IMG/VR virus record: IMGVR_UViG_2734482533_000012
Length of the DNA stretch: 40,498 nucleotides
Source of the DNA: a virus
Taxonomy: Duplodnaviria; Heunggongvirae; Uroviricota; Caudoviricetes
Strand: one strand, 5' to 3'
The notes below the pieces were generated by a model that did no database searches, had not been told where the DNA came from, and saw only the letters and a list, made by a program, of their open reading frames with translations. Position 1 is the stretch's first letter, and every line of letters starts with the position of its first letter. Positions 5,715 through 28,740 of this stretch are shown one piece after another. The position numbers and the translations under genes were made by a program.

Positions 5715-6484
5715 CTACACACACTGCTCCTGAAAATACTGGTCATCCAGTGCAAAGATCACTGCTTCAAATTCATCGCGCTCAATCAATACCGGATGAG
5801 TGGCTAAATATTCATTTATCTCTGTCAGAGATAAAGGCAAAGGCACCCCAGCCATTCCAGCATAACGTCGGGCACGGGATATTACCGAATAGGCGTACAA
5901 CAACTCCTTAAGCACCGGGTCTATTTCTGGTTCCGGTATCGGTGGCAACCTGAGTTTTTCTCGCTTCCATCTTGCCTTTTCCCCCCTTTCTCCCCCGAAC
6001 TCCGATAACCACCGCTGGGCAGCTATGGCTTTTTTATCGTATCCTGCTTCTGCTGCTCTTTACCCTGGGCGATGCTGGCTGCTTCTGCAAGGATCTGCCA
6101 GTACAACTCTGGATTCTGCTTAAGCAGCGCGATCCCTCGTTCTGCCGTATATTCCAGTGCAACCTCAACACCATTAACCAGTTCACCAACCCCTTTCCAG
6201 TCTTTCAGCAGATAACGAGCGGCATTATCAATGAGTAAATCATCAACAGAATCCACCTCGGAAACCTTTGAAATATCAAACTCCTTCGTTCCGACGTGCA
6301 AACTGGCATCCATTTTCTCAATGTGGCGACGGATTAATGCATTACGGGAGCGATACTGATCGTTATCGCTGCTTGCCACCAACAGTTTTAACCCGTCTAC
6401 AGGTTTTAAGTCCTTCATTGGCGTAAACCAGCGTTCTCCACCAATGATAATTTTCTGATTAAGAATAAACATCCATAACCTCAT
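5715..6484 (-). CDS. Tail assembly chaperone G-T fusion made by programmed -1 frameshift
   Basis: The -1 frame is open from the slippery site at 6029-6035 down to 5715 (...KKAIAAQRWLSEFGGERGEKARWKREKLRLPPIPEPEIDPV...), directly upstream of the tape measure gene as in lambda G/G-T. Confidence 0.65.
6023..6484 (-). CDS. Tail assembly chaperone (gpG-like)
   Basis: 153-aa ORF between the major tail gene and the frameshift site; acidic protein in the expected position. Confidence 0.65.
   Translation of the reverse strand: MRLWMFILNQKIIIGGERWFTPMKDLKPVDGLKLLVASSDNDQYRSRNALIRRHIEKMDASLHVGTKEFDISKVSEVDSVDDLLIDNAARYLLKDWKGVGELVNGVEVALEYTAERGIALLKQNPELYWQILAEAASIAQGKEQQKQDTIKKP
6029..6035 (-). promoter_or_regulatory. 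Slippery heptamer A_AAA_AAG for the G to G-T -1 frameshift
   Basis: Minus strand reads ACG AUA AAA AAG CCA UAG; the heptamer sits 2 codons before the G stop and the -1 frame continues open for about 100 codons. Confidence 0.65.
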
Positions 6485-6532
6485 TCAATGCGTCCCCCTG
6501 TAGGGCAGTACCACAGGAGGAATAACGGAAAA

Positions 6533-7495: not shown

Positions 7496-7521
7496 AGGAG
7501 CCTCCTATGTCATTAATTGCG

Positions 7522-7914
7522 CTAGAGCGCGCGATATGGAATTTGAAGATTAAGCTGGAACCAGCCATTCTTTTCGCCAACGGCTATTGAGGAAACAGCC
7601 TGGTAACTGAGACGATCGTCATCCTGAAACTCAAACAGTTCCCGCAATTTATCGGCTGTCTCAGTAATGAGTTTTGAACCAGAACCTGCGGGGACAAATA
7701 ACTGAATAATGATTATCCCCGTGCGATAAACAACCGGCCCCGCGCCAATTTCATTAACTCCAGCCTGCCCGGGAATATTACTTAACCGCGCCCAGATTAA
7801 CTTACCGGAAGGATCGAACGTTGGCCCGTTCGGATACAATACGTCTTTTCCATCAATAATCGTCTGTGCCGTCATTCTGGAAATAACCGTATTTCTGATT
7901 TCAGTAAACTTCAT
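7522..7914 (-). CDS. Tail completion / tail terminator protein (by position)
   Basis: 130-aa ORF immediately upstream of the major tail gene. Confidence 0.45.
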   Translation of the reverse strand: MKFTEIRNTVISRMTAQTIIDGKDVLYPNGPTFDPSGKLIWARLSNIPGQAGVNEIGAGPVVYRTGIIIIQLFVPAGSGSKLITETADKLRELFEFQDDDRLSYQAVSSIAVGEKNGWFQLNLQIPYRAL

Positions 7915-8291
7915 TTGTAAGCCTGTAAAACACCATGAAAAGCGTTGGCATACACGCCAGTTGGCGCTTGTTGTGAATGACCGTTTTCAAGAGCCTCTGC
8001 ATAAGGAAGGTTATTCTGGATATAAATAACCCCGTAATTTGCAGCTTTCGAAATAACCCCGATCCCACGCTGAACAGCAATCGTACCGTTCGGATCCACG
8101 TTATCAGATATACCAAAATCGGGATGCTGTAACGACACCAGGTTGTTATTTCTGAAACGTCCGGTATCAACCGGAGCAGCAATATCAATAGCAGTAAGAA
8201 TCTGCATAGCGATGTAGCGAATCTTCAGCCCTACATCTTCCTCAATCATCCCGGCAAATATTGACGGTTCTATATCCCATGCCTTTGCCAT
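7911..8291 (-). CDS. Head-tail joining protein (possibly HK97 gp10-like)
   Basis: 126-aa ORF in the head-tail connector block; 4-bp overlap with the downstream gene. Confidence 0.45.
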   Translation of the reverse strand: MAKAWDIEPSIFAGMIEEDVGLKIRYIAMQILTAIDIAAPVDTGRFRNNNLVSLQHPDFGISDNVDPNGTIAVQRGIGVISKAANYGVIYIQNNLPYAEALENGHSQQAPTGVYANAFHGVLQAYK

Positions 8292-8675
8292 TTACGCTCT
8301 CCTTAACTGGATAGAGTAAACTGATGCGGAAGGATCTACACTTGCTGTAATTACCTCGTATCGTTGTAACTGCCTTGATACAGGATCATAAATCTCAATA
8401 ATATGGTCGACAGCTGGTTTATCCGTAACCTCGCATACCAGAGCGGTTAATTTAAGGTCACCATGCAAAATATTAATCCCATCAATTCTGCCCAGCTTAT
8501 AACGTGTCAACACGCCTCGCCCGGTATAGATTGCGGTGGATTCGCCGCCAGTTTCCGTCACAGGATCCCAGTGCCGGTGCGTAACGTAAGAACCAGAAAA
8601 ATCACTCACGGCGTCCGCTAAATCCTCATCAAAAGCAGCGGCAACCTCTGACTGAATCTCTTCACGAAGCCCCAT
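8292..8675 (-). CDS. Head-tail adaptor / head closure protein (by position)
   Basis: 127-aa ORF in the head-tail connector block. Confidence 0.45.
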   Translation of the reverse strand: MGLREEIQSEVAAAFDEDLADAVSDFSGSYVTHRHWDPVTETGGESTAIYTGRGVLTRYKLGRIDGINILHGDLKLTALVCEVTDKPAVDHIIEIYDPVSRQLQRYEVITASVDPSASVYSIQLRRA

Positions 8676-9070
8676 TATCCCCCCCTCACAACCCTGACTT
8701 GTGAGCGACTAAGTCCGTACGGTTTCAGCAGTGCTATCGCAAGCTGTAAATCGGGTTCAAGCAATGCAGTGCTGTTTGCTGGCAACTCAGAAAATGATTT
8801 CGATACACTGACCCCGTCAGCCGACACGGCTTTACTGATAACAACGCCAGAATCATTTTTCTGCTGAAACAACTTACCGAATGAGGCAATTCTGGCTGCA
8901 TATGCTCCCGCAAGTTTTACCTCTTCCGGAATACGGGATGGGTTAATTTTCAGGTTGAAGCCATTAAGCCAGGCATTAGCCATTAAAACAGCTTTATTTT
9001 TAGCGTTCTCACTCGTCCAGGCGTTCCCAAACGCATTATCAACGTCATCACAGGTCACGTAAGTGATCAT
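8675..9070 (-). CDS. Head-tail connector protein (by position)
   Basis: 131-aa ORF; start overlaps the stop of the downstream gene. Confidence 0.45.
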   Translation of the reverse strand: MITYVTCDDVDNAFGNAWTSENAKNKAVLMANAWLNGFNLKINPSRIPEEVKLAGAYAARIASFGKLFQQKNDSGVVISKAVSADGVSVSKSFSELPANSTALLEPDLQLAIALLKPYGLSRSQVRVVRGG

Positions 9071-9073
9071 GTG

Positions 9074-9250
9074 TTACTCCTGAGTTTTCCAGCCCATAGC
9101 CTTCCAGTTGTCAACTTCATCAGGATGAACATTAGCGATAGTTGGTGCGCCGGGAAACATCTGATAATCGGTCACCATAACCACTAACTCAATTTGCGTT
9201 TTTTGTGCGGCTTCACGCTGTGCTCTTTGCTCTTTAGTTAATCCGGCCAT
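9074..9250 (-). CDS. Small phage protein (58 aa), function unknown
   Basis: ORF MAGLTKEQRAQREAAQKTQIELVVMVTDYQMFPGAPTIANVHPDEVDNWKAMGWKTQE lies between the capsid gene terminator and the connector genes; not in the supplied track because it is under 60 aa. Confidence 0.35.
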   Translation of the reverse strand: MAGLTKEQRAQREAAQKTQIELVVMVTDYQMFPGAPTIANVHPDEVDNWKAMGWKTQE

Positions 9251-9260
9251 ATGCCCCCCA

Positions 9261-9285
9261 TTAAAAATGGGGCCGAAGCCCCGTT
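9261..9285 (-). terminator. Intrinsic terminator / attenuator just after the major capsid gene
   Basis: Minus strand reads GGGGCUUCGGCCCC (9269-9282) followed by AUUUUUAA; located 8 bp downstream of the capsid stop. Confidence 0.55.
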
Positions 9286-9292
9286 TGAATGT

Positions 9293-10432
9293 TTAACCAA
9301 GAATCAGACAACCATGTGCCGGCTTCACTGATGAAACACCCCATGCCAGTCCAACTTCATAGCGCACCTGGCGATACTGACGATACAGTGCAATCTGGAA
9401 CGTAATCCCTGAAATCGGGTCCGTAACATTCATTACATCATCAGCATTATCGCCACCTTCCGGCATTGCCGGAGTACGGGATGCCAGCAGAAACGCGTTG
9501 CGATCAAACGCCATATTTGCAGTAAAGGCCCCAACAACTGTGATGGCAGTATCATCGGCCAGATCCTGACGCAGTCCGGGCGCTGCAAGAGTAATCAGAT
9601 TGCTGGTCGCTGCTGCCACAACATACTGATTCGGATCACCAGCGAACGTAACAATCTGACCTGCAGAAATACTCCCCGAACCAGTATCAATGGAAATAAG
9701 AACATCGCCTTCTTTTTTCTCTCCATTCACGAGATAACCAGTTGCAGCAACCTTTGGCGCTCGTTTCACACCTGCCGAACTGTGAATATTGAATCCCTCC
9801 AGACGCCCCAACACGCCCTCACGCAGTAGCTGTTCAGTGCCGGATTCATTCACTTTAAACAATACAGACTGTTTTCCGCGCAAATTAGCAATGGCAGTGG
9901 AGCCAAGCACCATCTGCAGATCGGTTGTCGGTGCGCCGTTATCCTCCAGAACCTGACGAGCCAGAGCAGCATCAGAAAGATCATCTTTAACACCAAACGG
10001 CGTTGTCCCTGCGGTTCCCACGGCGCGGGAAGCACCGAAATACAACGCACCAAGATCAGCCTCAACCTCGTTTGCAAGGGCGCGAAAAGCCTGCTTGAAC
10101 TGATCAGCCAGAATGGTGTTGTAAGTCCCTGAAGGGCCAAGAGCCAGTTGTTCTTCACCATTCCATTTAACCGGTGCCATTTTGGATTTAGTAATTTTTA
10201 CATCAACAGTGCCAATATTTTGATCACCGGTATTCGGAGCTGACGGCCCCGGTACGATATCTTCGGTTTTCGCCTCAGGCGCAACTGGCGCGGTTACCGT
10301 CTGATCTTTTGCTGCGGCGTCAGCTTTTGCGTTTTTTGCTACCGCAGGGATAAAACCTACCTGCTCACGGGATACAACATCCAGGGCGGTATAAATAGTC
10401 GGGATCAACCCGGTCAGGGTATTTCCAGCCAT
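9293..10432 (-). CDS. Major capsid protein
   Basis: 380 aa from ATG at 10432 (MAGNTLTGLIP...) with AAGGAA upstream; the longer track ORF begins at an upstream in-frame Met with no ribosome-binding site. Follows the scaffold gene and is followed by a terminator. Confidence 0.6.
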   Translation of the reverse strand: MAGNTLTGLIPTIYTALDVVSREQVGFIPAVAKNAKADAAAKDQTVTAPVAPEAKTEDIVPGPSAPNTGDQNIGTVDVKITKSKMAPVKWNGEEQLALGPSGTYNTILADQFKQAFRALANEVEADLGALYFGASRAVGTAGTTPFGVKDDLSDAALARQVLEDNGAPTTDLQMVLGSTAIANLRGKQSVLFKVNESGTEQLLREGVLGRLEGFNIHSSAGVKRAPKVAATGYLVNGEKKEGDVLISIDTGSGSISAGQIVTFAGDPNQYVVAAATSNLITLAAPGLRQDLADDTAITVVGAFTANMAFDRNAFLLASRTPAMPEGGDNADDVMNVTDPISGITFQIALYRQYRQVRYEVGLAWGVSSVKPAHGCLILG

Positions 10433-10530
10433 AATTAAATATTCCTTAAAAATTTGCGTAATTGTGAATAGATGGAGTAATGAGCTATCCAGCCCTGACA
10501 CCAGCTCCCATCCGGAAGCTGACAAATGTG

Positions 10531-11295
10531 TTAATCAACGATTGTGATACCGTCTTTCAATGCGTTTTGCTTACCTGCAACATCCAGTGCATCAAAAGCA
10601 GAGCGTTTCATCGTTTTCTGACCAATATCATGCTGTGTCGGACGGGAGCCGCCGCCATTGTTGCCACTGGCTTTCAGGATGTAGTCTTTCTGAGGGTAAT
10701 TTTCGACAAGGAACTCCAGCGCCTCATCAAACTGCGCCAGTTCGCCAGGCTTCGCGCGGGAATAAATTTTGTTGCCGGAAGCGTCATAAGCAACGATCCT
10801 CCCTTCTTCCACTTTGAATGCCTGCCCGAAGCGGGCTTGTAATAAATCTGCCGGGATCGCAATTTTATCGGCAATATATTTTGAACCCGCAAAACTACCG
10901 CCAATCATAGAATCGTAAAGCTGCTTCTCCAGCATCTGAGAGCGTTGCTTTTCTTCATCTAATTGCTGCTGAAAATTTTTCGTAATTTCTGCCTTAACCT
11001 GGTCAACCTGTCCCGCATCGAGCAGCTTTTTCTGGTCGATTTTTGACAGCATTTCCAGTGCCTCGATCGCCTTCTTCGGGTCTTCGATAGCGGCAAACTT
11101 AGCCAGTTTTTCCTCTGCAGCTTCTTTAGCCAGGCGATGATTTTTTGCCTCGCCATTAAGCTCTGTAATTTTTTTTGTCGCCAGCGGTGCATCGAAGCCA
11201 ATTTCTTTACCATCGTCGTGCACATAAACTGGCAGGCCAGCAGTATCAATTTCTGCGTATTGTTTTCCGTTAATCTCGACCGTTTTCAGTTTCAT
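10531..11295 (-). CDS. Scaffolding protein
   Basis: Start taken at the internal Met (MKLKTVEINGK...); charged, Ala/Lys/Glu/Gln-rich helical sequence between the Mu-F-like gene and the capsid gene. Confidence 0.5.
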   Translation of the reverse strand: MKLKTVEINGKQYAEIDTAGLPVYVHDDGKEIGFDAPLATKKITELNGEAKNHRLAKEAAEEKLAKFAAIEDPKKAIEALEMLSKIDQKKLLDAGQVDQVKAEITKNFQQQLDEEKQRSQMLEKQLYDSMIGGSFAGSKYIADKIAIPADLLQARFGQAFKVEEGRIVAYDASGNKIYSRAKPGELAQFDEALEFLVENYPQKDYILKASGNNGGGSRPTQHDIGQKTMKRSAFDALDVAGKQNALKDGITIVD

Positions 11296-11399
11296 ATTAG
11301 TACCTGGTTTAAGTCTTCCGACAGTTACGCTGCTCACCATCCGGATCGCAGCAATAAAAAAGGCCACCCGAAGGTAGCCTGTTGTAATAAATGATTTAT

Positions 11400-12515
11400 T
11401 TAAATCCCTGCTTTTCTGAATACCTGTGCATCACGCTCACGGAGCTGCTTCAGCGTCAGCCATTCGCCTTTATCGGTGTAAAATTCATCTGGCGACATAC
11501 CACCATCCCGAATCAGCTTTGCTCGGCTTTCCCCCACAATCTGTTTTTGTCTGGTGTAAGGCTGACGCAAAAACCATTCCCTGTAGGTTGTATCTCCGGC
11601 CACCACGCCATCCATGCTGGCCCGCTCAGCCGGGGAAATATCGCGAACATCAATACCCAGTTCCTTCGCTGATTTCAGAATGAACGTTTCCGTTGAGCGG
11701 CAGCAGAAATGAATTTTTCCCGGCCCCTGCAAATAAGGCACGCTGTGACCTACAGGTTTATTATTCAGCGTATATTTGAGGCGATCCCTGATTCGACATT
11801 GTGGCGTAGTACGATTATCAAGCGTTGATAACCATTGCTTACCCTTAATCAAATCATTATTCGCGCTGGCAAAACTCTCACGGGCAGTAGCAGCAAGATG
11901 TCCAACCGCTGTTTTTGCAATGCTGGCCGCATTAGCCCGGCTCATCTGCAATGCACCATCCTGAAATCCCTTACTGACATGTCCCCGAATTTTTCTTGCG
12001 ATCTGCTCATTGGTATCCCCCAGCAAAAAACCCTGACGCACTGTATTTGTTATGCGTCTGAGCCGATCCGCCTCAAGATCTGAGGCCCACTCACTGAGCA
12101 GTCGTCCCTGGAATGGTCGCGCCATTGCAGCGGCATAAAGTGCATCAGGAGAGATACCAACCAGAGGGTGAACATCAGCAACAAAATCAGGTAGCATAGA
12201 ATCAAACAGACTTAACTGATAACCAGCCTCATAAATTGCCAGCTCGTTCAGCTCTCCGGAGAGACTGGTAAACATGCTGTTAATAGCAGTGCGGTTAACC
12301 TCTCTGACGCTCGCCAGAAGTGACTCCAGGCGCTTAACGGTAAAACTACCTGGATCGAGGCTGTCCAGTGCTATCAGCAGGCGAGCAGTAAGTTCCGCAT
12401 CGCTGTCATTCAGTATTTTCACCATTCTGGCAGCCACGCCAGTGCTATAGCGGGATATCCAGACTGCATGAGCAATTGATTCATCACGCAGCCGTTCATT
12501 CACGGTTTGCATCAT
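11400..12515 (-). CDS. Head morphogenesis protein (phage Mu F / SPP1 gp7 family)
   Basis: 371 aa containing ...LDNRTTPQCR..., characteristic of the Mu F-like family; immediately downstream of the portal gene. Confidence 0.7.
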   Translation of the reverse strand: MMQTVNERLRDESIAHAVWISRYSTGVAARMVKILNDSDAELTARLLIALDSLDPGSFTVKRLESLLASVREVNRTAINSMFTSLSGELNELAIYEAGYQLSLFDSMLPDFVADVHPLVGISPDALYAAAMARPFQGRLLSEWASDLEADRLRRITNTVRQGFLLGDTNEQIARKIRGHVSKGFQDGALQMSRANAASIAKTAVGHLAATARESFASANNDLIKGKQWLSTLDNRTTPQCRIRDRLKYTLNNKPVGHSVPYLQGPGKIHFCCRSTETFILKSAKELGIDVRDISPAERASMDGVVAGDTTYREWFLRQPYTRQKQIVGESRAKLIRDGGMSPDEFYTDKGEWLTLKQLRERDAQVFRKAGI

Positions 12516-13902
12516 TGATTTCCATCAGCATTACACTCTGATTTTTTAATTCATCGATCACTTCCTCTGGACGGGAATCCTGATCGATAAATTTCAACGC
12601 CTGCAACACCCGAACCGCATCAATCTGACGTATATCACCGCCCTGACGCAATGACTGAACAGCCAGCGCGGAGGATGAGTCAAACACCTGGGCAGATACA
12701 TCCAGTTCAGTGCGCACATCCACATTGCCACCGCAACTCTCTCCGATCCATTCCGCCATTATCTGGAGAATATTATCGAGGGCATCTTCGAGGGAGTTCG
12801 CCATTGTATAAAGCGGCGAGTTTTCCTGCATTCGCTCTTCATTAGTCTGATCAACAGATTTGGTGGATGTATTTTCAGCACGCAGAAGTTTAGCGCCGGC
12901 ATGACGCATCTGATTTTCCAGCTTCTCAAGTGATGTTTCGCCAGATTCTATCGCTGCGCCACTATGTTCAACATATTCGAGGCCATTTTTTGTTCTGTCC
13001 TCAAAAATCGTAGCGGTGGATGCACCAACCGTCAGTTCTTCATTCCTGTCCAGCCCGTAGGCCACCAGCAATGGAACGCGGGCAACATGAAGAATATTGT
13101 CCTGCTCGCTCTGGCTTTGCCAGTGCTTGATATTCAGCAAGCCAAGATTAAGCAATGGCGGTGTACCACGCATAAATCCTGTTTTCTTCGTGTACAGTGT
13201 TACCAGAGGAATATCATCACGGCTGGTATTCCATGACTCATGAAGCGTCCAGACAGATTCGCCATTAGTGCCTTCGCTACGTCGATAAATTTCAACTCGA
13301 CGGGGCATAATATGGCGGATCTGCTCCACCTTCTTCTGCCCGAAATCATCACCATCAATAATGATGACCTCTTTTATACGCAAATCAGTGAGAACAACTT
13401 TCCCTTTTTCAACTTTCGATTTCCATCCAATAACCTGGCGTGGATTCAGCATCGTAACGTACGGACGACCACCGGTCGCGTTTTCATCGGCTTTTGTCCG
13501 AATCTCTTTCATATCCGTTCGTGGATAGTCCACCAGCGCATGTGCCACACCATACTGAAATGCGAGGCTGAAAAATTGCTGCGCCCACACATCCAGTCGG
13601 CTCCCCTCCATGTCGATATTTTCTGCATATTCCCTGATTTTTGCCGGCGTTTCCTCACTCAATACTGTCGGCTCTGCAAATATGCGCCCAATATTTTGCT
13701 TGATGCTTTCTTCATACACAGGAAGTAGCGTAGCCACAGACAGGCGTTTTTTATAAGCGTCTTCATCTTCGTTAGGCCATTTTGGGAGATAATTTTCCCC
13801 CTGCCTGCGCATTTCAAGCGTACCGCCCATCAGTGCGTCGTTAATATCCCACGCCTCCAGCATATCGTTATAGTCGAGGTTGGGTGTTGATATATCAGCC
13901 AT
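12496..13902 (-). CDS. Portal protein
   Basis: 468-aa ORF between the large terminase and the Mu-F-like gene, the canonical portal position. Confidence 0.7.
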   Translation of the reverse strand: MADISTPNLDYNDMLEAWDINDALMGGTLEMRRQGENYLPKWPNEDEDAYKKRLSVATLLPVYEESIKQNIGRIFAEPTVLSEETPAKIREYAENIDMEGSRLDVWAQQFFSLAFQYGVAHALVDYPRTDMKEIRTKADENATGGRPYVTMLNPRQVIGWKSKVEKGKVVLTDLRIKEVIIIDGDDFGQKKVEQIRHIMPRRVEIYRRSEGTNGESVWTLHESWNTSRDDIPLVTLYTKKTGFMRGTPPLLNLGLLNIKHWQSQSEQDNILHVARVPLLVAYGLDRNEELTVGASTATIFEDRTKNGLEYVEHSGAAIESGETSLEKLENQMRHAGAKLLRAENTSTKSVDQTNEERMQENSPLYTMANSLEDALDNILQIMAEWIGESCGGNVDVRTELDVSAQVFDSSSALAVQSLRQGGDIRQIDAVRVLQALKFIDQDSRPEEVIDELKNQSVMLMEINDANRE

Positions 13903-13904
13903 AA

Positions 13905-15215
13905 TTAAATCCGAAGTGATGTGACTCTTCCGGTCGGTTTGACAATAGGGAATTGCTTAACGATGAAATAACCTCCGGCATCATTCGGGTGATCATTGCC
14001 AGATTTTTTATCAGGCTCCCCCTTCTCATCCCAGACCTGTTGCTCCAGAGATTCGGCATATAACGGGCAACGCTTCACATTAACTTTATAGCGACGCTCA
14101 CCATTGGCATTGCAGAACATTGCATTCATTGAGTTAACGCGATCTTTTACTGGCGGGTTCGAGCTGTTCACCACAACGTTAAAACCAGCCTGCTTAAGCT
14201 GGGCTATATCCGTCGTACTTGCGTTACTTGATTTTCTGGAATCCCCGGAAGCATCTGGATAAATATAAATTTCCCTCACTTTCCGGTAATCATTCCCATC
14301 ATACAGCCAGAAGCGTTCTTTAATGATGCGGATCATATCCGGCGTATCGTAGGCATTGATGATTTCAGTTACCGCACATGGAAGCCCCAAACGCAGCACA
14401 TGGACGATTCCCGCCATCTTTCCAACGTTAAAATCCATCCCAATATAAATCGGCTCCCCTGGCTGCTCCACTTCTTCGCAATTATTCAGTTTCCGGTCAA
14501 ACTGATGGTAAACAGTACCACTTGTCAGGTTAGTAAACTGTCCTCGAAGATAGGCTTTAATCAGCTCTGGAGGGTATGATTCAAGAAGCGAAGGAATGTA
14601 ATCTGCTGGCAGGTTCTTTTCATTATCGAAAGTAGATGCCTGCACCAGACCATACAGTGAGGCCAGCTCTGTTTTTTCACGCACGGCTTTAACAAACTGC
14701 TCGTAGACAAATTTGAATCCTTCCGGCGTGGTTGTAACGTCAATACCGTTGCGAAGTCCATCAATCTTATAACGCATACGTGCAATTATCTTGCGCCACG
14801 CCGTTCTGGCTTTTTCCTTCGGCAAAATGTCCAGTTCATCCACCAACGCATTACCAATTTTGAAACCGACGATCGTTTGTGGCTTCTCCATCGATCTGCA
14901 GATAGTGGTTCCCCGATACTGGCGTCCGTAATAAAAGTGAACCTCTTTATTTCCCTCATTAATTTTTACGTTCAATCCCCAGTCAGCAGCAACTTCTTCC
15001 ACTGTAGGGTAAAAAATATCGCGAATTTGGGGATACGTTGGCGCAAAATATCCCTGATTTATACCTGGATGCTCCCAAATCCCCTTGCATATGCCGCCAC
15101 ACCCAACCCATGTTTTGCCCGAGCCAAAACCAGCAATATAGGCTTTAAATTTATGGGGCATTGAAAGAAATCGCGCCTGAGGCACATTAAGCGTCGGAGA
15201 GATCATCTTCATCAC
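13905..15215 (-). CDS. Terminase large subunit
   Basis: 436 aa with a Walker A-like motif (YIAGFGSGKT) and a C-terminal acidic nuclease region; overlaps the end of the small subunit gene. Confidence 0.85.
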   Translation of the reverse strand: MMKMISPTLNVPQARFLSMPHKFKAYIAGFGSGKTWVGCGGICKGIWEHPGINQGYFAPTYPQIRDIFYPTVEEVAADWGLNVKINEGNKEVHFYYGRQYRGTTICRSMEKPQTIVGFKIGNALVDELDILPKEKARTAWRKIIARMRYKIDGLRNGIDVTTTPEGFKFVYEQFVKAVREKTELASLYGLVQASTFDNEKNLPADYIPSLLESYPPELIKAYLRGQFTNLTSGTVYHQFDRKLNNCEEVEQPGEPIYIGMDFNVGKMAGIVHVLRLGLPCAVTEIINAYDTPDMIRIIKERFWLYDGNDYRKVREIYIYPDASGDSRKSSNASTTDIAQLKQAGFNVVVNSSNPPVKDRVNSMNAMFCNANGERRYKVNVKRCPLYAESLEQQVWDEKGEPDKKSGNDHPNDAGGYFIVKQFPIVKPTGRVTSLRI

Positions 15216-16281
15216 TCCTTACTCTGGCATCAACCACATTAATATTGATCGCCACAGGCTGGGGATGTTCATTATCTTCCACCGTTTCGATCTCTTTGCG
15301 CAGCTTCTGGTTTTCCATTCTGCGCCGTTCAATTTCCAGTTCCCGTAGCCGCTTATCTGCACATAAAGCCCCGCCAGCAGAAAACAAACGCAACAATTCA
15401 CGCCGGGCGGCAGCCTTATCCTCCAGCAGGATCTCAACGCCGAATTTTCCGAATTTTGCCCCTGCATATAATTGCCGCGCATCCCCATCAAGCAGAGTGG
15501 TATCAGCCATATAAAGCTGTCCCGTTCCCTCACCGCAGCACTTCGGGCAGTCCGGATTGGGTATGGCGTTATCAACAAAGCCGAGGCCTCCATATTCCGG
15601 TTCGGGTTTGCCATCTCTGGAAGCCTGCGCCGCTGCCTTGTCGAATTCTGCTATATCGCGCCACTGGTAGAGATGATTCTCGCCCCAGCAATAACGGCAG
15701 TTAACACGGCGAAATTGTGCAAGCTGATTGGGGTCGGCCAGGACAATAGCCATCAACTGACTCACTAGTAAATCCAGGTCTGCGGTATAGCGTTTCTGGT
15801 ACTGATTGCGGAAGTAGCTGATAGCGCGAAAAACCCTGGCATTTCTAAGCATACGACTGGCGTTGCTGTTAGCTGTCGCACCTTGCCCCTCATAACCGGC
15901 TAGTCGGTACGCCTCTGTCGGCTTTTTACCCTGAGCAACAAGCATCGCAAACTTAGCCTGCTGGTCAGAAATGCCGAATTCATCGGGACAGAACGAAAAT
16001 TCCTCCGCGTCGCCCTCATTCAGGCCCGCATCGAATACTGGCTTTTTTTCCTGAGATTTTTCGTTCCGCTTTTGTGCAGTCTGCGCAGATTTTTTCTGCG
16101 CACTTTTTTGCGCAGTTTTGCACATTTCTGTCTGCGCATTTTTCGGAGTTTTTTTGATGTAACGACGGGCTGTTGCGTAATTCAGTCCCCTTGCTTCACA
16201 CCATGCCACCGGAGATATACCGGAGCGGGTGTATTCAGCAATATACTCCTGCTGCAACGCCCCCCAGTCCGGTCTGCTCAT
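15187..16281 (-). CDS. Terminase small subunit (DNA-recognition subunit)
   Basis: 364 aa; an N-terminal HTH and an internal AYRLAGYEGQGATANSNASRMLRNARV segment resemble small-terminase DNA-binding motifs; directly upstream of the large subunit. Confidence 0.6.
   Translation of the reverse strand: MSRPDWGALQQEYIAEYTRSGISPVAWCEARGLNYATARRYIKKTPKNAQTEMCKTAQKSAQKKSAQTAQKRNEKSQEKKPVFDAGLNEGDAEEFSFCPDEFGISDQQAKFAMLVAQGKKPTEAYRLAGYEGQGATANSNASRMLRNARVFRAISYFRNQYQKRYTADLDLLVSQLMAIVLADPNQLAQFRRVNCRYCWGENHLYQWRDIAEFDKAAAQASRDGKPEPEYGGLGFVDNAIPNPDCPKCCGEGTGQLYMADTTLLDGDARQLYAGAKFGKFGVEILLEDKAAARRELLRLFSAGGALCADKRLRELEIERRRMENQKLRKEIETVEDNEHPQPVAININVVDARVRSDEDDLSDA
16070..16145. repeat. Array of about 5 CTGCGCA(N)TTTT repeats inside the small terminase gene (candidate pac / terminase recognition site)
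   Basis: ctgcgcagattttttctgcgcacttttttgcgcagttttgcacatttctgtctgcgcattttt; repeat period about 12-15 bp. Confidence 0.45.
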
Positions 16282-16284
16282 CAG

Positions 16285-16536
16285 TTAGTCCTGATTTTTA
16301 TCCACCCTGAGTAGTTCGCGCAGAGCAAAGGCATCCCCTTTTCTGGCAAGCTTAAACAATGCCGCTCGTAACTCGGCTTCACCTTTCGCTCTGCCCTTAC
16401 GGATGGCCGCATAAAAATCTGTCATTGCTTCCCGATTTTCTTTCAGTCGGTTCAGATCAACATCCAGAACGTCAGCGATTTGTTGTGCAGTCATCCGGCA
16501 CGCTGCCAGAGACTCGACTTTCGAATACGGAATCAT
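16285..16536 (-). CDS. Hypothetical phage protein (83 aa, helix-rich)
   Basis: ORF upstream of the small terminase gene; 5' end overlaps the preceding gene, so the true start may be the second Met. Confidence 0.4.
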   Translation of the reverse strand: MIPYSKVESLAACRMTAQQIADVLDVDLNRLKENREAMTDFYAAIRKGRAKGEAELRAALFKLARKGDAFALRELLRVDKNQD

Positions 16537-17422
16537 TTGTCACCCCCATTGATATGCAGGGTGTCTTCTTCCTGTATTTTTCGTGAAGGATTTTTACTGC
16601 AGCGTTGTTCCAGGTGACCTGATGGTGAATGCGTTTATGACTGGCACCCATAAGTGAGATTTTTACGCACGACGGCGCATACATGACGGAGTAAAAACTT
16701 TTAACGTAGGTTCCGGAATCCAGATACAGCTCGGTCATTCCGCCGCTGTTTTTCTGCGTCTGTTTCTGCCCTAACTGGACAGCACCGATCGTCATAAACA
16801 ATTCACCACAGCGACCGAGATTCGTGTACGTATTCACATCCTCGTTAATGCGCCCCATGAATGAGAACGGTCGATCAACCGAACAGATAAAGCTGTTCAT
16901 TGCCTTGCGTTTCACCCACGAAGCATGGCCGCCATTGTCACCAAGAAAATCCCCGCCCTGCGACATAGCGATGGAAAGAGCAGGTATTGATTCGTAGTAC
17001 GCAAGCATTTCAGAAAGGATCTCATCCAGTTTCCTTATCGGGAAATAGGCCTGGTCATAGTTGCGATCCACCCGAAACTGGAACTCGTGATAATCATCAT
17101 CGAGCTGAATGAAGTATTTACACCCGACCAGTTTTGCCTGGTCGAAACAGGCATTACGGGCGTAAAAAATTGAGCGGCGGTCACTAAAATTATCGGCTTC
17201 GTCAAAACGACTAGCAATATCGGCTTTGGAAAATACCAGCACCTGTTCACCAAATTCAGCCATGTACTGATGCCGTGTCTTATCTTCATCATCAACAACG
17301 ATAAAAATTTTCCCGGTATAGCCAGCACGACGCAACGTCCGGTAAGTCAGAACTTTGTCCGGTCGCCCGTGAGTCAGAATAAAGGCGCAAAAATCATCAC
17401 GCATATTCCTCCTCCCCGCCAT
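16472..17422 (-). CDS. ydaY: GT-A glycosyltransferase-like protein (full-length counterpart of K-12 ydaY)
   Basis: 316 aa; motifs FILTHGRPD...IFIVVDDED...FIQLDDDYHEF resemble the Rossmann-like core and DxD motif of GT-A nucleotide-sugar transferases; 26-bp overlap with the ParB-like gene. Confidence 0.5.
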   Translation of the reverse strand: MAGRRNMRDDFCAFILTHGRPDKVLTYRTLRRAGYTGKIFIVVDDEDKTRHQYMAEFGEQVLVFSKADIASRFDEADNFSDRRSIFYARNACFDQAKLVGCKYFIQLDDDYHEFQFRVDRNYDQAYFPIRKLDEILSEMLAYYESIPALSIAMSQGGDFLGDNGGHASWVKRKAMNSFICSVDRPFSFMGRINEDVNTYTNLGRCGELFMTIGAVQLGQKQTQKNSGGMTELYLDSGTYVKSFYSVMYAPSCVKISLMGASHKRIHHQVTWNNAAVKILHEKYRKKTPCISMGVTNDSVFESRVSGSVPDDCTTNR

Positions 17423-18185
17423 GCATGATCTCCACCATGCGCTGCGTCATTCGGACAAATCCATTTTCAATAGCCTGCTGATAATCAATGATCACCAGCG
17501 CCGACTCCTCGAAAAGGCACTGAATTTCAGCGGGGGCATGAGCGTAATAGTCCGCAATTCTGCTGAAATTAAACACCGTGTGACGTTCTGCTGCACACAG
17601 GAGGAATTTCTCAATATCAGGATCAAGGGACGCCGAACGTATCCGGCTGATCAGCTCCTGAGTTTTCGTATCGTCGTACAGTTCACTGATATCCGGTTTA
17701 CCGCCTGACGGCTCATAAACAGGCGTATCAATTTTCGTCGTATACGGCTCCTCCTCATTTCCTGTACCGGGCAAAACATCCGTCAACAGTTCATCAATTT
17801 CTGCCGGGATGAAGCCTGTCAGGGAGACATCAAAATCAGCATTGATTAGGTCCGACAGCTCCATCCGCAACAGATCTTCATCCCAGCCAGCATTCATCGG
17901 CAGGCGATTATCTGCCAGGCGGTACGCCTTTTTCTGCTCATCCGTCAGGCCAGACAGAACAATGACCGGAACAGAATCCATTTTGAGCATTTCAGCCGCC
18001 ATAACACGACCGTGACCCGCAATAATTTCGCCCTTTTCGTCAATCAGCACCGGATTAGTCCAGCCGAATTGCTTAATACTTTCTACCAGTTGTGCCACCT
18101 GCTCAGTACTGTGCGTCCTGGCGTTGTGCGCATACGGTGACAATTCTTGTAATGGGCGATAGACTATCTTTAATTTCTCGCTCAT
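17397..18185 (-). CDS. ynaK: ParB-like nuclease domain protein (full-length counterpart of K-12 ynaK)
   Basis: 262 aa; N-terminal ...PVLIDEKGEIIAGHGRVMAA... resembles the ParB/sulfiredoxin-fold N-terminal domain. Confidence 0.65.
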   Translation of the reverse strand: MSEKLKIVYRPLQELSPYAHNARTHSTEQVAQLVESIKQFGWTNPVLIDEKGEIIAGHGRVMAAEMLKMDSVPVIVLSGLTDEQKKAYRLADNRLPMNAGWDEDLLRMELSDLINADFDVSLTGFIPAEIDELLTDVLPGTGNEEEPYTTKIDTPVYEPSGGKPDISELYDDTKTQELISRIRSASLDPDIEKFLLCAAERHTVFNFSRIADYYAHAPAEIQCLFEESALVIIDYQQAIENGFVRMTQRMVEIMHGGEEEYA

Positions 18186-18322
18186 ACAGCCTTGCTTTAT
18201 GAATAAAACGCACCCCAGCAGCCAGTGCTACTGGGGGCGGAGGTGTTGCTGGTAAAGTTAGGTATTGGATCAATGAGTGAGTCAACATAATATTAAACTC
18301 ACAATTATAAATCAGCCATATA

Positions 18323-19780
18323 TTAGGAGCGCCAAAAAAAACCTGAAAACAATATAATAACAGGATAAATTTCAAGGCGACCAAGAATCATAGCTATGCA
18401 CATTAAATATTTTGCAATGTCATTAAGCACTCCGAATGACGATGCAGTAGCCCCAAAACCTAATCCCATATTATTAATACATGCAGCCACTGTTGCAAAT
18501 GATGTAAGAAAATCATATCCCATACCATTTAACACCAGTATAAAAAACACCGTGAAGAGAGTATAAAGAAAAAAGAAACTCCATACAGACCTCATTACAC
18601 GATCTGTAACTATCTTCCCTCCTACATTTACACTCAACAACGCTCTGGGATGAGAAAGCTGATTTATCTCGTGTTTGCTTTGTTTGAAAAGTATAAGAAA
18701 TCGAAGTGACTTAATTCCACCACAGGTTGAACCTATACATCCCCCAAAGAAACTTGACAACAGCAAAAACACTATCGTGTGCGTGGGCCAGTTTGCATAA
18801 TCCTGCGTAGCTAAACCATTATCAGTGAGCATGGAGCTGGCAAGAAAAAACGAATGAATAAAACTTCCATGCAAGTCATACATACCTATATGCCAGACCT
18901 GGAAAGAGGTAACAATGATCACCCCTAAGGCTATTAACAGAAAGAAACGAAGTTCAATATCTCTGATTAAAGGTTTTATCGTTTTTCTGCTAATAACAAT
19001 ATACCAAAGAGTGAAGTTGAAAGCCGATAGCAGGGAAAAAGAACCAGCCACCAGCTCAACCAAATAGTTATTAAAATATCCGATACTCTCGCTATGAGTT
19101 GAGAAACCACCAAGCGAAACTGTGGAAATCCCGTGACAAATAGCATCAAACAAAGGCATTCCTGCAAGTCTATAACAGACAATACAAGCAATACCTAATA
19201 AAGAATAAGTTATCCACAGTGTCCGTGACGTATCGGCCAGGCGGGGAGTGAGTTTGTCATCCTTAAATGGCCCCGGCATTTCTGACTGATAAAGCTTTGC
19301 ACCACCAATACCCAATAATGGCAATACTGCAACCGCCAGAACAATAACTCCTAAACCACCTATAAAATTTAACTGTGACCGATAGTACAAATATGCCCGA
19401 GGTAATGAACTAACATCATCAATTACAGTTGCTCCTGTTGTTGTTATTCCAGAAACCCCTTCAAACAGAGCATCAATGAACGTTAAATTAAGTTCTGAGT
19501 CAATCCATAAAGGGAATGCACTAATAACAGAAAACAAAATCCAAAACATTACAATTATAATAAACCCATCACGGGTACGTAATTGAATGCCAGATTTCTT
19601 AGTTGTATACCACGCTCCGCCACCAATGCAAAAAAATATAACGAAAGTTATAAAGAAAACGAACAGGCTTTTTTCTTTATAAAACAATGCTACAACCATT
19701 GGTGGCAACATTGAAAGACTATAGAGCCAAACCAGGAACCCACACATATGAGTAACAACTCTTACATGAGATGTATTCAT
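18323..19780 (-). CDS. trkG: Trk system potassium uptake protein TrkG
   Basis: 485 aa from MNTSHVRVVTHMCGFLVWLY...; matches E. coli TrkG (a Rac prophage gene) from memory. Multi-pass membrane protein in markedly AT-rich DNA. Confidence 0.9.
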   Translation of the reverse strand: MNTSHVRVVTHMCGFLVWLYSLSMLPPMVVALFYKEKSLFVFFITFVIFFCIGGGAWYTTKKSGIQLRTRDGFIIIVMFWILFSVISAFPLWIDSELNLTFIDALFEGVSGITTTGATVIDDVSSLPRAYLYYRSQLNFIGGLGVIVLAVAVLPLLGIGGAKLYQSEMPGPFKDDKLTPRLADTSRTLWITYSLLGIACIVCYRLAGMPLFDAICHGISTVSLGGFSTHSESIGYFNNYLVELVAGSFSLLSAFNFTLWYIVISRKTIKPLIRDIELRFFLLIALGVIIVTSFQVWHIGMYDLHGSFIHSFFLASSMLTDNGLATQDYANWPTHTIVFLLLSSFFGGCIGSTCGGIKSLRFLILFKQSKHEINQLSHPRALLSVNVGGKIVTDRVMRSVWSFFFLYTLFTVFFILVLNGMGYDFLTSFATVAACINNMGLGFGATASSFGVLNDIAKYLMCIAMILGRLEIYPVIILFSGFFWRS

Positions 19781-19917
19781 ATCTAAATATTCTTTCAATT
19801 ATAACCACCTTGCTGCAATATTATGATTATACTGTATAAAATTTAACTCCTCTTAGATCTTACTTCACTGTTCCTTATGAAACAATCATCAAAATGAATC
19901 ATATTGTAGTTAAGATT

Positions 19918-21342: not shown

Positions 21343-21738
21343 CTAACCTCGCATGTCAAAGCCAGATTTCTGAAAATCTCTGTAGACTTCCGGATTGTTG
21401 AAGGCCGGAAATTTGGCTTTATGAGCTGCGGACTTTATCGCTTCGCAATAGGCTTTATCACCGTTACTGGTAGATATTTTTAACGCCGTGCCATCCTGAG
21501 AGAATTCCATATGCAACCTGCATTTTTTCCCTTTCCAGTTATGCGGCTCATCAAGTTTGGCATTAATTGCAGCTCTGATTCCCCGCGCTTGCGCCCCCCA
21601 TTCATCCTGATCATCCCAGCGTCCTGAACTGCAACTACCTGTAGCAGTAGTTTTGTGGCAATCTGAAGGGTGTAAAGGTGTGCATCCCGCAACAAAACCG
21701 ACCCAAAAAGTCAACATAACGATTTTCTTTAATCCCAC
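21343..21738 (-). CDS. Lipoprotein with TolA domain III-like C-terminus (paralog 2, more divergent)
   Basis: 131 aa from GTG with AGGAG upstream; signal peptide with lipobox FVAGC; C-terminal KGKKCRLHMEFSQDGTALKIS...YCEAIKSAAHKAKFPAFNNPEVYRDFQKSGFD parallels the TolA C-terminal domain. Confidence 0.7.
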   Translation of the reverse strand: MGLKKIVMLTFWVGFVAGCTPLHPSDCHKTTATGSCSSGRWDDQDEWGAQARGIRAAINAKLDEPHNWKGKKCRLHMEFSQDGTALKISTSNGDKAYCEAIKSAAHKAKFPAFNNPEVYRDFQKSGFDMRG

Positions 21739-21888
21739 TTCTTGCTCCTCAATCCATTAAAATCTCAGCAATAGTAGTTGTTACGTCCGCCACTGGCTCA
21801 GAGCTGACTATCCGCTAAATTTAGCTCAGTGCCGTAGCTGTGTCAGAACAAACCTAAGCCGAAACCGTTTATTACAAAACAATAAATA

Positions 21889-22317
21889 TCAGGGTTTAAA
21901 ATCCAGCACCCCATTTTGAAATACTTTATATACTTCCGGCGAAGGGGGGGCAGGTATATCAGCATTCTTTATCGCATTCATCGCTTCACGACATAAATCG
22001 AGGTCTCCACTTTCTCTTTTAACCTCCAGTAGAAGGCCATTCGGGGCCATATGCATTCTCAGTGTACACTCTTTTCCTGAATACTTACTCGCATCCCCGA
22101 ACTGTTTTTCGATGGCGCTCTTGATTTGATGGGCATACAGACGGATATCCTCACTAACATCAGAAGTACGTTCAGATGAACTCACATACTGTGTCTCTAT
22201 TGCTTTATCGGAGTAATATGATGTACGGTCATGATAATTTGTCGATACAGCATCAGTGCACCCGATAATAATCCCACTAATAATCAACGTAAGAATTGAT
22301 GCGCTACGAAAACCCAT
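21889..22317 (-). CDS. Lipoprotein with TolA domain III-like C-terminus (paralog 1)
   Basis: 142 aa; lipobox IIIGC; C-terminal YAHQIKSAIEKQFGDASKYSGKECTLRMHMAPNGLLLEVKRESGDLDLCREAMNAIKNADIPAPPSPEVYKVFQNGVLDFKP aligns closely with the C-terminus of E. coli TolA (...CTLRIKLAPDGMLLDIKPEGGDPALCQAALAAAKLAKIPKPPSQAVYEVFKNAPLDFKP) as recalled. Confidence 0.75.
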   Translation of the reverse strand: MGFRSASILTLIISGIIIGCTDAVSTNYHDRTSYYSDKAIETQYVSSSERTSDVSEDIRLYAHQIKSAIEKQFGDASKYSGKECTLRMHMAPNGLLLEVKRESGDLDLCREAMNAIKNADIPAPPSPEVYKVFQNGVLDFKP

Positions 22318-26562: not shown

Positions 26563-27564
26563 TTAGTAATCTGCGTGTTTCGCACTTTTCAGAAATGCTT
26601 TCATATTTTCATTAGGTCGCTCAATTTCGAAGTTACTTCCATATAACTCTTGTAATTTTGGCCATAACTTACTTAATAACCCTCTCCTGCGATAAAATGG
26701 ATGTATCCAAACGGTAGATAGGTACGGAGAATTTGCATTTGAATTGTTTATTGTGACCAGCCCAACTAAACATTGTCGATAACCACTATTATCCATTGAT
26801 TGTATTTCTTCGACGAATGGATACGCGATTACATCAGTCCAACCATGATCGGTTGTATCCCATTGCATTCCGTCATGACATTCCTTCGACTGATAGCGGC
26901 GTAAAGCTACACACGCGAGCTTTTGCCAATCTGGAGAATTAATTGTGATCTCTTCATCGTATGACGCGCCTATTGGAGCGGGTATTGGTCTGATTAATCC
27001 AGCATGGCATTCATCATAGAACTTCATGTTTCCCTCAGAAACGTTGTGTACGTTGGGTTGCTCCATGTGTGCGCCATTCAAAAATAGCTCTGATAGTAGT
27101 GTATCTACACTGTAATCTTTATTGATTATTGTCGGCTTAGAGTTTTTCTTATTAAGGCCGCGAGTAACGATTTTTTGATCAATGTTAACAACATGGAATA
27201 ATCCGTCGGGGAGGCTAGCGAACCACGATGGGGCATCGGACCAGAATAGCATGCCTTTTGTACTTCTTAAGAGTTTAATTAAGTTAATACAAGCTTCTTC
27301 ACTAGTCTTGCCGTTGATGCGAAGTATGTTAGGACTAAAGTAATATTCATCCATATCAGGGAATGCAGCTTCGCAAAACTCCTGTACATAATTTAGCACC
27401 TGGATTCTACAGAGATCATCATAGCTGGTAATAACTAAGGGGGTATCTTCATTACTATTATGATTATCAATAATGCAATCTATAGCGAGACTTACTGCTT
27501 TGCGTATCACTTCAGTTGAATCTAACGACTCTAAAAATTTTGTCTTTCGTGTGCGAATATCCAT
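26563..27564 (-). CDS. Hypothetical protein B (333 aa), second gene of the AT-rich accessory operon; weak GNAT-like C-terminal motif
   Basis: ORF 15 bp downstream of gene A; C-terminal ...YLSTVWIHPFYRRRGLLSKLWPKL... loosely resembles GNAT motif A; no recognisable phage function. Confidence 0.6.
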   Translation of the reverse strand: MDIRTRKTKFLESLDSTEVIRKAVSLAIDCIIDNHNSNEDTPLVITSYDDLCRIQVLNYVQEFCEAAFPDMDEYYFSPNILRINGKTSEEACINLIKLLRSTKGMLFWSDAPSWFASLPDGLFHVVNIDQKIVTRGLNKKNSKPTIINKDYSVDTLLSELFLNGAHMEQPNVHNVSEGNMKFYDECHAGLIRPIPAPIGASYDEEITINSPDWQKLACVALRRYQSKECHDGMQWDTTDHGWTDVIAYPFVEEIQSMDNSGYRQCLVGLVTINNSNANSPYLSTVWIHPFYRRRGLLSKLWPKLQELYGSNFEIERPNENMKAFLKSAKHADY

Positions 27565-28602: not shown

Positions 28603-28740
28603 AACCTGCCTCCTTAAACTAACATACCATGAGCCAGCAATGTCCGCTATTGGCACAAAGCGGACAACCACGCTAGCTCTCCCCTGTGCCAGAAAAATGT
28701 CAATTTACATATGAACTAATGCTCTTTGATCTAGTAACGT

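Follow-up and report, generated by a model that had tools for sequence, protein, structure and literature searches.

What does a ParB-like protein do for a glycosyltransferase when phages keep the genes of the two overlapping, one directly after the other? The question is raised by a 40,498-nt stretch of Caudoviricetes DNA (IMG/VR record IMGVR_UViG_2734482533_000012; herein referred to as the window, meaning the whole stretch that was analyzed), a Rac-like lambdoid Escherichia coli prophage in which a gene for a 262-aa ParB-like protein overlaps a gene for a glycosyltransferase of the TAGT (TET-associated glycosyltransferase) family close to the terminase genes. An original prediction, made from the DNA letters of the window, had suggested that the two form a DNA modification or processing module acting on phage DNA, possibly in anti-restriction. 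Here, we find that this TAGT clade is accompanied by a dedicated partner gene in loci spanning many phyla, and that the element of the partner that stays constant is its unannotated C-terminal half and not its ParB fold. We put at roughly even probability the proposal, drawn from these sequences and from analogy with characterized enzymes, that the pair is a partner-dependent DNA glycosylation module.

Both open reading frames (ORFs) are genuine genes and not chance reading frames, because each has Pfam and PHROG matches, thousands of homologues and a ratio of nonsynonymous to synonymous divergence (dN/dS, omega) below 0.1. The ParB-like protein scores 29.3 bits on Pfam ParB_N (PF02195; cut-off 26.3) and matches phrog_620 (E 1.7e-90), and the transferase scores 118.8 bits on Pfam TAGT (PF20691; cut-off 27.5, E 4e-34, residues 14–228 of the 316-aa ORF) and matches phrog_842 (E 8e-104), with the PGAP name "GREB1-related protein". 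Strong purifying selection acts on both genes: dN is 0.14–0.35 with saturated dS, and omega is <0.1 where it is computable.

The pairing reaches far beyond E. coli. A species-level genome scan yielded 55 loci, and our comparison set (n = 57) includes two metagenomic loci and one further genomic locus; a scan of viral contigs gave almost only E. coli-like loci, and the diversity of contexts described here was therefore drawn from the genome scan. The scan loci come from Enterobacterales, Bacteroidota, Firmicutes, Desulfobacterota, Acidobacteriota, Actinobacteria, Chlorobi, candidate phyla radiation (CPR) bacteria and an archaeal metagenome-assembled genome (at least eight phyla), with enzyme identities of 42–99%. 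A gene for a ParB-like protein, or for a protein consisting of its C-terminal domain only, lies directly upstream of the TAGT gene and overlaps its start in 55/57 loci, the two loci without an upstream partner being truncated contigs. The same arrangement is found in phages phi jlb1, c5 and HHTV-2, and the cultured carriers that we identified are Lactobacillus gasseri phage phi jlb1, the Lactobacillus delbrueckii phages c5, LL-Ku, phiLdb, Ld17 and PMBT4, Nocardia phage NTR1, a group of ~191-kb Vibrio phages and Haloarcula virus HHTV-2. Judged from this gene order, the pairing of this TAGT clade with its partner gene is to be read as obligate.

Which part of the partner is held constant becomes apparent from its shortest versions. 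The 130–150-aa upstream proteins in six loci and in the Vibrio phages align with residues ~136–260 of the ParB-like protein and not with its ParB domain, and a profile of this C-terminal region retrieves 2121 proteins. Among the best 120 of these 2121, 79 are shorter than 180 aa and lack any Pfam domain (that is, they are of the C-terminal-half-only form), and 38 are at least 220 aa long, most with ParB_N in front. All of the best 120 (120/120) contain the linear motif Y-[TS]-x-K-[IV]-x-x-P-x-Y-E-P, in which the residue after the first tyrosine is always threonine (69) or serine (51); Y148, P155 and Y157 of the motif are at least 90% conserved across phyla. By sequence comparison, then, the constant partner element of this glycosyltransferase clade is the C-terminal half (motif plus helical domain), not the ParB fold. 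No credible Pfam or PDB family match was obtained for the C-terminal domain; two candidates, designed armadillo repeats (E about 1e-3, with no single domain significant) and Phage_Gene47 (E 0.02–0.035, below threshold), were discarded.

The enzyme of the pair is the more readily placed. The GT-A-like motifs to which the original prediction had drawn attention (ILTHGRPD, IVVDDED and LDDDYH) are all present, and the assignment to GT-A transferases held in homology and structure searches alike (TAGT by Pfam, GT-A enzymes by Foldseek); homologues of the transferase also carry PF20691. The AlphaFold2 model is confident for residues 1–215, its best PDB structural matches are all GT-A enzymes (E about 1e-4, prob 1.0), and its top viral structural matches in BFVD are TAGT-domain phage proteins (E 8e-20); a sequence search for relatives of solved structure returned none at E ≤ 1. 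R14 (of HGR), D102-D103-D104 and E188-D189 (in N187-E188-D189) show no change across 18 aligned sequences with identities down to 59%. The family signature R...DDD...ED[Y/F], which phage GT-A DNA glycosyltransferases are described as sharing with the base-J glucosyltransferase of trypanosomes (JGT) (bioRxiv 10.1101/2023.12.21.572611), is present as R...DDD...ED, with V and not Y/F as the residue after ED. Beyond the modeled core, a basic segment (residues 216–288) is as conserved as the rest of the transferase, with a predicted local distance difference test score (pLDDT) of about 30, and may form a nucleic-acid-binding or partner-binding surface. The transferase looks active and DNA-directed.

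The company that it keeps within its family is consistent with this view. TAGT enzymes include the second glucosyltransferase of phages T2/T6 and JGT, and the characterized members mostly glycosylate DNA (PMC13216743, PMC13390438, bioRxiv 10.1101/2023.12.21.572611). The T6 beta-glucosyl-HMC-alpha-glucosyltransferase (ggt) also belongs to this Pfam family, though distantly, which explains the PHROG name; it scores 35.8 bits on the Pfam TAGT model as against 118.8 for our transferase, and a direct profile comparison of the two gave no match, so that the link runs solely via the Pfam model. The characterized DNA glycosyltransferases (T2/T6, JGT and the phage GT-A enzymes associated with 5mYOX) share PF20691, the GT-A fold and the R...DDD...ED signature with our enzyme; they act, however, on 5-hydroxymethylcytosine (5hmC), glucosyl-5hmC or 5-hydroxymethyluracil (5hmU) that a hydroxymethylase or dioxygenase supplies, and no dependence on a partner protein is reported for any of them. 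The present clade is very distant from T6 ggt and has both the conserved basic C-terminal segment and the apparently obligate partner gene. ParB–TAGT fusions were also considered as Rosetta-stone evidence and rejected: the N-terminal extensions of long TAGT proteins are P-loop kinase-like, methyltransferase or second-glycosyltransferase domains, with no ParB and no C-terminal domain among them.

In the model, the ParB-like protein is laid out in three parts, a ParB/Srx domain, a disordered linker and a helical C-terminal domain (Table 1). Its N-terminus had been assigned to the ParB/sulfiredoxin fold, and this is borne out by Pfam, by profile matches to Noc/ParB structures and by the model, which matches Noc, ParB, PadC and KorB (E about 1e-6); the GHGRV region noted there lies in AGHGRV at residues 56–61. 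N21-A-R23, G57-H58-G59-R60 and D92-N93 align with ParB boxes I (QPR), II (GERRxRA) and III (EN), with the phosphate-binding Arg and Asn kept, the catalytic Glu replaced by His and one Arg by Gly, and nucleotide specificity is not predictable from ParB-type sequence (PMC12704722). The protein is strongly acidic (pI 4.5, net charge about −24), neither the model nor a Pfam scan contains a helix-turn-helix (HTH) DNA-binding domain, and it does not pass as a partition ParB (TIGR00180 38 bits, under the cut-off of 58, with no ParA among the prophage genes). The ParB domain resembles instead the N-terminus of phage DNA methyltransferase fusions (phrog_498, E 6e-51; PADLOC MTase_II, E 1.5e-38), and 496 phage records match a ParB domain of this methyltransferase-fusion type, many of them annotated as adenine methyltransferases. 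The PADLOC match is of the methyltransferase N-terminus to the ParB domain alone and the transferase has no match there; the pair was hence rejected as a known defense system.

The genome neighborhoods all fall on packaging, replication or recombination genes. In ~40 of the 46 evaluable loci, a small terminase-like gene and the large terminase follow directly downstream, and these large terminases are of at least four Pfam types (Terminase_6, Terminase_3, T7-like, GpA or TerL_ATPase); in phage c5, the pair has the cos site on one side and the terminase on the other. Where the partner is of the C-terminal-half-only form, the pair is not beside a terminase and is placed in an early or replication region. 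In two loci (L116 and L118), the pair lies between a family-A DNA polymerase (PolA) and a homologue of the DNA polymerase III beta-clamp, and in three others (L153, L156 and L157) a C-terminal-half-only pair adjoins ERF, NinG and NinB. Some loci are more elaborate and add functions that tailor sugars, with tandem TAGTs or with a TAGT fused to a class I methyltransferase, a sulfotransferase or a P-loop kinase-like domain, and some have a radical-SAM enzyme, a GT-B enzyme or a hexapeptide acetyltransferase as neighbors; by analogy, these fusions and neighbors resemble known DNA hypermodification clusters. Two tandem TAGT paralogues follow a single partner gene in three loci (L002 2207–3938, L134 3581–6161 and L116 2970–5117), an arrangement reminiscent of the glycosyltransferases that act in sequence to make disaccharides on phage DNA. 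In L156 (2554–5365) and L157, the early region has the C-terminal-half-only partner and TAGT, and the genes beside the terminase encode a ParB_N domain on its own (148 aa), a hexapeptide-repeat acetyltransferase and a GT-B glycosyltransferase; this gene set suggests a split, multi-step sugar pathway. Lastly, a Bacteroidales locus with the ParB-like/TAGT pair encodes a ParB-N/DNA-methyltransferase fusion just after the terminase (L113 9516–10760), and this phage therefore has two ParB-linked modification enzymes.

The timing of expression can be approached from the window itself. A strong intrinsic-terminator-like hairpin ends the trkG gene and precedes the start of the ParB-like gene by 27 nt, and no promoter-like site was seen between this hairpin and the ParB-like start codon. 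A terminator directly upstream with no promoter-like site after it argues for late, antiterminated expression, and implies that the pair would be read solely by antiterminated late transcription.

We favor DNA glycosylation because TAGT enzymes act on DNA, ParB partners serve DNA-modifying enzymes, the ParB domain is elsewhere fused to methyltransferases, and the contexts are those of packaging, replication and recombination; on the first three of these grounds, the DNA modification module acting on phage DNA of the original prediction is the best-supported reading. That ParB proteins accompany phage DNA-modification enzymes is a known idea (Iyer et al. 2013, as cited in PMC8256090 and PMC13229309). 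Indeed, phage T-dioxygenases need a ParB-like partner for activity on double-stranded DNA (O'Toole et al., PNAS 2026, PMC13229309), and, compared by domain layout, 5mYOX with its cognate ParB is like our pair in joining a phage ParB-like NTP-binding domain to a C-terminal domain, with no DNA-binding domain, beside a DNA-modifying enzyme. The 5mYOX–ParB pairs are often near the terminase, as here, and sometimes near glycosyltransferases; unlike them, our pair has a glycosyltransferase as its enzyme (TAGT adjacent in 55/57 loci) with no dioxygenase seen, and its C-terminal half alone can be the partner (PMC13229309). Similarly, DpdA needs the ParB-fold DpdB to insert preQ0 (PMC10164549), a case in which a ParB-fold NTPase without sequence-specific DNA binding serves a base-modifying enzyme on canonical double-stranded DNA, a role comparable to the one that the partner would have here. 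No stable complex of DpdA and DpdB was detected, DpdA is a TGT-fold transglycosylase that swaps a base, and DpdB differs from our partner protein in its DGQQR motif and in its C-terminal domain (PMC10164549); Dpd is, moreover, a chromosomal restriction-modification system, whereas the pair described here consists of putative late genes of a phage. The ParB-N/DNA methyltransferase fusions (phrog_498; PADLOC MTase_II) are phage-borne and have a closely related ParB domain (E 1e-38 to 6e-51), but they contain the catalytic methyltransferase in the same chain, whereas in our pair a novel C-terminal domain follows the ParB domain, and the enzyme is a protein of its own, apparently translationally coupled.

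We hypothesize that the TAGT enzyme (310 aa) is catalytically active as a GT-A transferase, depends on a nucleotide sugar and would work only with the ParB-like protein encoded directly upstream of it. The conserved C-terminal half of the partner (motif and helical domain) would bind or activate the enzyme, presumably through a physical interaction, and the ParB NTP-binding domain would gate the complex or clamp it onto double-stranded DNA. Transcribed with the late operon, the pair would modify replicated phage DNA just before or during packaging, DNA being the putative target and the late phase the putative timing. The presumed benefit would be that progeny DNA is shielded from host nucleases, that is, a candidate anti-restriction effect.

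Several observations weigh against DNA as the target. No TET/JBP dioxygenase, pyrimidine hydroxymethylase or cytosine-C5 methyltransferase was found in the window, in the annotated prophage of E. coli strain EC2 that is identical to it, in two complete phage genomes of 32–38 kb (phi jlb1 and c5), or in the Pfam-annotated related loci (no PF12851), and none of the recurrent neighbor families in the 57 loci is like a dioxygenase, hydroxymethylase or C5-methyltransferase. To our knowledge, canonical DNA lacks a hydroxyl of the type used by all characterized DNA glycosyltransferases. A literature search found no reported DNA modification in HHTV-2 or any other carrier phage, and nothing relevant on a function for ynaK or ydaY, the K-12 genes that had been taken for remnants of the pair. 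A DNA-binding domain is missing from the ParB-like protein, which is very acidic (net −24), the C-terminal third of the transferase is not resolved in the model, and GREB1, a TAGT relative, glycosylates a protein (PMC7968844). A hidden enzyme of one of these kinds in the prophage was also considered and dropped: a Pfam scan of the unannotated ORFs gave only weak GNAT and HEPN/RES-NTD matches (26563–27564 and 27580–28671) and domains of unknown function elsewhere.

One way to accommodate the missing hydroxylase is that partner and TAGT would be self-sufficient in attaching sugars to canonical, non-hydroxymethylated DNA, a new chemistry that we consider unlikely; the ~110-aa partner domain would then be an obligatory activator or a DNA-opening factor. 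Another is that the target is a protein: the sugar would go onto the partner's invariant tyrosine or the Ser/Thr of its motif, or onto some other phage or host protein with the partner as substrate or adaptor. A hydroxylated base would not be needed, and a precedent for such priming is known, since glycogenin primes on its own tyrosine. The motif lies in a predicted disordered linker and occurs in 120/120 family members (best 120 of 2121), the T or S after its first tyrosine conserves a hydroxyl, and the universal companion of the enzyme is the partner and not the ParB fold, all of which fits a protein acceptor. Structural matches of the transferase do include self-glucosylating glycogenin and the peptide glycosyltransferases SunS and ThuS; however, the Foldseek matches reflect the generic GT-A fold only. 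The precedent of GREB1 is likewise two-sided: this animal protein, from which NCBI takes the name of the E. coli enzyme ("GREB1-related"), has a TAGT-type domain as here and is reported to O-GlcNAcylate a protein, but it is a large eukaryotic protein acting on the estrogen receptor, with no ParB partner or phage context (PMC7968844). Moreover, DNA is the target of most characterized TAGT members, the ParB domain is of the type attached to DNA methyltransferases, and the terminase, polymerase, clamp and recombinase contexts offer no rationale for a glycosylated 131-aa acidic protein. We accord protein glycosylation a small share of the probability.

A hydroxylated base might also be supplied from outside. 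The enzyme would then need 5hmU, 5hmC or glucosyl-hmC from elsewhere, and the pair would either be idle here or act on foreign (e.g., T-even) DNA in interference or competition. All characterized DNA members of the TAGT family use such acceptors, E. coli is commonly attacked by hmC phages, and prophage genes often counter superinfecting phages. However, purifying selection is strong, and the pair is kept in virulent as well as temperate phages of Firmicutes, Bacteroidota, Actinobacteria and haloarchaea without a hydroxylase; in the window, it lies behind a terminator in the late operon and is not a lysogen-expressed moron, and its placement by the terminase or in a replication module points to the phage's own DNA, so that we hold this alternative to be improbable. 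Highly improbable, in our estimate, is the absence of any covalent DNA or protein modification, with the ParB-like protein assisting in packaging or partition (e.g., by marking DNA for the terminase or condensing it) and the transferase acting on a small molecule or RNA, for instance in anti-defense: the constant terS/terL adjacency, the position between cos site and terminase in c5 and the GT-A fold shared with nucleotidyltransferases (among the weaker Foldseek matches) speak for it, but no ParA, HTH domain or parS-type requirement is evident, the C-terminal-domain-only versions are nowhere near terminases, the pairing is independent of terminase family and the catalytic residues of the transferase are invariant.

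Both protein families of the putative DNA glycosylation module are already known. In the literature that we searched, we did not find it described that this TAGT clade is strictly paired, across phyla, with a partner gene of its own, that the constant element of this partner is an unannotated C-terminal domain with its motif and not the ParB fold, that the pairs have two placements (packaging versus replication modules), or that a hydroxylase is consistently absent. If DNA were glycosylated without prior hydroxylation, this would be a new class of DNA modification in phages of many phyla and haloarchaea, and it would change the expected view that restriction, BREX-type and type IV defenses in E. 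coli, gut Bacteroidota and Firmicutes have of temperate-phage DNA; if the partner protein were the target, the pair would be a new system by which phages glycosylate proteins. In both cases, the analysis defines a family of partner domains that had no annotation (about 2100 proteins found), and the pair would add a third case to those in which a ParB-fold protein serves an enzyme that modifies nucleic acids. It also bears on the ~65% of phage glycosyltransferase contigs without 5mYOX or ThyS nearby that Pyle et al. left unexplained (bioRxiv 10.1101/2023.12.21.572611).

Table 1. Coordinates of the gene pair, its predicted domains and motifs, and adjacent features in the window.
Feature	Position	Strand	Basis or remark
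ParB-like partner gene, 262 aa, intact form of K-12 ynaK	17397..18185	-	ORF, Pfam ParB_N, phrog_620
ParB/Srx NTP-binding domain, residues 1-135	17781..18185	-	Aligns with Noc/ParB CTPase domains
Conserved linear motif, residues 146-160, EPYTTKIDTPVYEPS, predicted disordered linker	17706..17750	-	Model pLDDT <50
Helical C-terminal domain, residues 170-255, FLxxAAxRHxVFNFxxIADYYAH...SALVIID	17421..17678	-	
Gene junction: ParB-like stop TGA 17397-17399, glycosyltransferase ATG 17402-17404, overlap ATGCGTGA	17397..17415	-	Read from sequence
TAGT-family GT-A glycosyltransferase gene, 310 aa	16472..17404 (ORF open to 17422, 316 aa)	-	Pfam TAGT, phrog_842
Invariant D102-D103-D104, DxD-type metal/nucleotide-sugar motif	17093..17101	-	18 sequences aligned
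Basic C-terminal segment, residues 216-288, pI 9.7, invariant R258, H260, H261, W265	16541..16759	-	
83-aa ORF, overlaps 3' end of glycosyltransferase gene	16285-16536	-	Like TerS fragment
TerS	15187-16281	-	
TerL	13905-15215	-	
Intrinsic-terminator-like hairpin, 10 bp stem then TGCGTTTTAT, ends trkG	18213-18236	-	
trkG potassium-transporter moron	18323-19798	-	Sits between lysis cassette and ParB-like gene

At the level of the genes, the two overlapping minus-strand ORFs are present as first described (Table 1). For the 316-aa protein, the ORF stands and the length does not, as the probable start is six codons further on and gives 310 aa. The true start is almost certainly M7 of the ORF (ATG at 17404), because the homologues begin with MRD or MRE (the N-terminus in 17/17 aligned glycosyltransferase homologues), PGAP gives a 310-aa protein, and the Shine-Dalgarno sequence GGAGGAGG (17408–17415) is found shortly 5' of this ATG. 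The stop of the ParB-like gene and this start overlap by 8 nt, which supports the translational coupling that had been proposed.

The gene order of the window matches that of the annotated prophage of strain EC2, and the two are 100% identical over the 1966-bp region compared (16285–18250). Along the minus strand, holin, lysozyme, Rz and the trkG moron are followed by the ParB-like ORF, the glycosyltransferase ORF, the 83-aa ORF, TerS, TerL and portal, so the pair does sit between lysis and packaging genes. The 83-aa ORF aligns with the middle of a TerS family (phrog_309, E 8e-23), has an equivalent 82-aa gene in a Yersinia locus (L007, 5253–5501), and may be the DNA-binding part split off the small terminase.

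That K-12 Rac retains remnants of both genes of the pair, as ynaK and ydaY, is correct for ynaK, which corresponds to residues 1–85 of the ParB-like protein, and incorrect for ydaY, which is the remnant of a tail gene. K-12 Rac aligns to the window from 19862 to 17932 and then resumes from 6374 to 4615, and this jump indicates a deletion of ~11.5 kb in K-12. The lost segment corresponds exactly to 6375–17931 of the window and comprises the ParB-like gene beyond its first third, the glycosyltransferase gene in full and the packaging, head and most tail genes; the glycosyltransferase is thus entirely missing from K-12. The junction joins codon ~85 of the ParB-like gene to a tail-region ORF (6023–6484) and creates the overlapping ynaK/ydaY pair (87 and 119 aa, respectively). 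ydaY was rejected as a glycosyltransferase remnant, being the last 117 aa of this tail-region ORF (6023..6484) at 100% identity, and it is annotated in the tail region of the identical EC2 prophage too. The pair is present in whole or in part in 1600/5426 complete E. coli genomes (about 30%), and at least 80% of it is present in 867 of the 5426 (about 16%).

The ParB-like gene is also affected by annotation. In RefSeq EC2 (L001 21113–21901, equivalent to window 17397–18185), PGAP calls just an 86-aa "ynaK" pseudogene ("missing C-terminus") and leaves the remainder of the intact 262-aa ORF without annotation, though the sequence is identical. This looks like an artefact of naming after the truncated K-12 protein, and some E. 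coli genomes may therefore lack an annotation of this protein at its full length.

Elsewhere in the prophage, several cargo genes deserve mention. In the Yersinia relatives (L007), the trkG slot is filled by a heat-labile-enterotoxin-like A/B pair (Enterotoxin_a, LT-IIB), and the slot is therefore a cargo hotspot. Between the Q-like antiterminator region and the holin, proteins with a TolA C-terminal domain are encoded at 21343–22317 on the minus strand (Pfam TolA E 2e-23 for 21889–22317), an unusual prophage cargo that might interfere with Tol-dependent entry of phages or colicins. Finally, the nin-like region encodes two adjacent hypothetical proteins on the minus strand, of 333 aa (26563–27564) and 363 aa (27580–28671), with sub-threshold Pfam matches (to a GNAT acetyltransferase, E 9e-4, and to a HEPN/RES N-terminal domain, E 2e-4) and with no PADLOC match for either; the former is frameshifted in strain EC2, and the two could be an uncharacterized toxin or defense pair.

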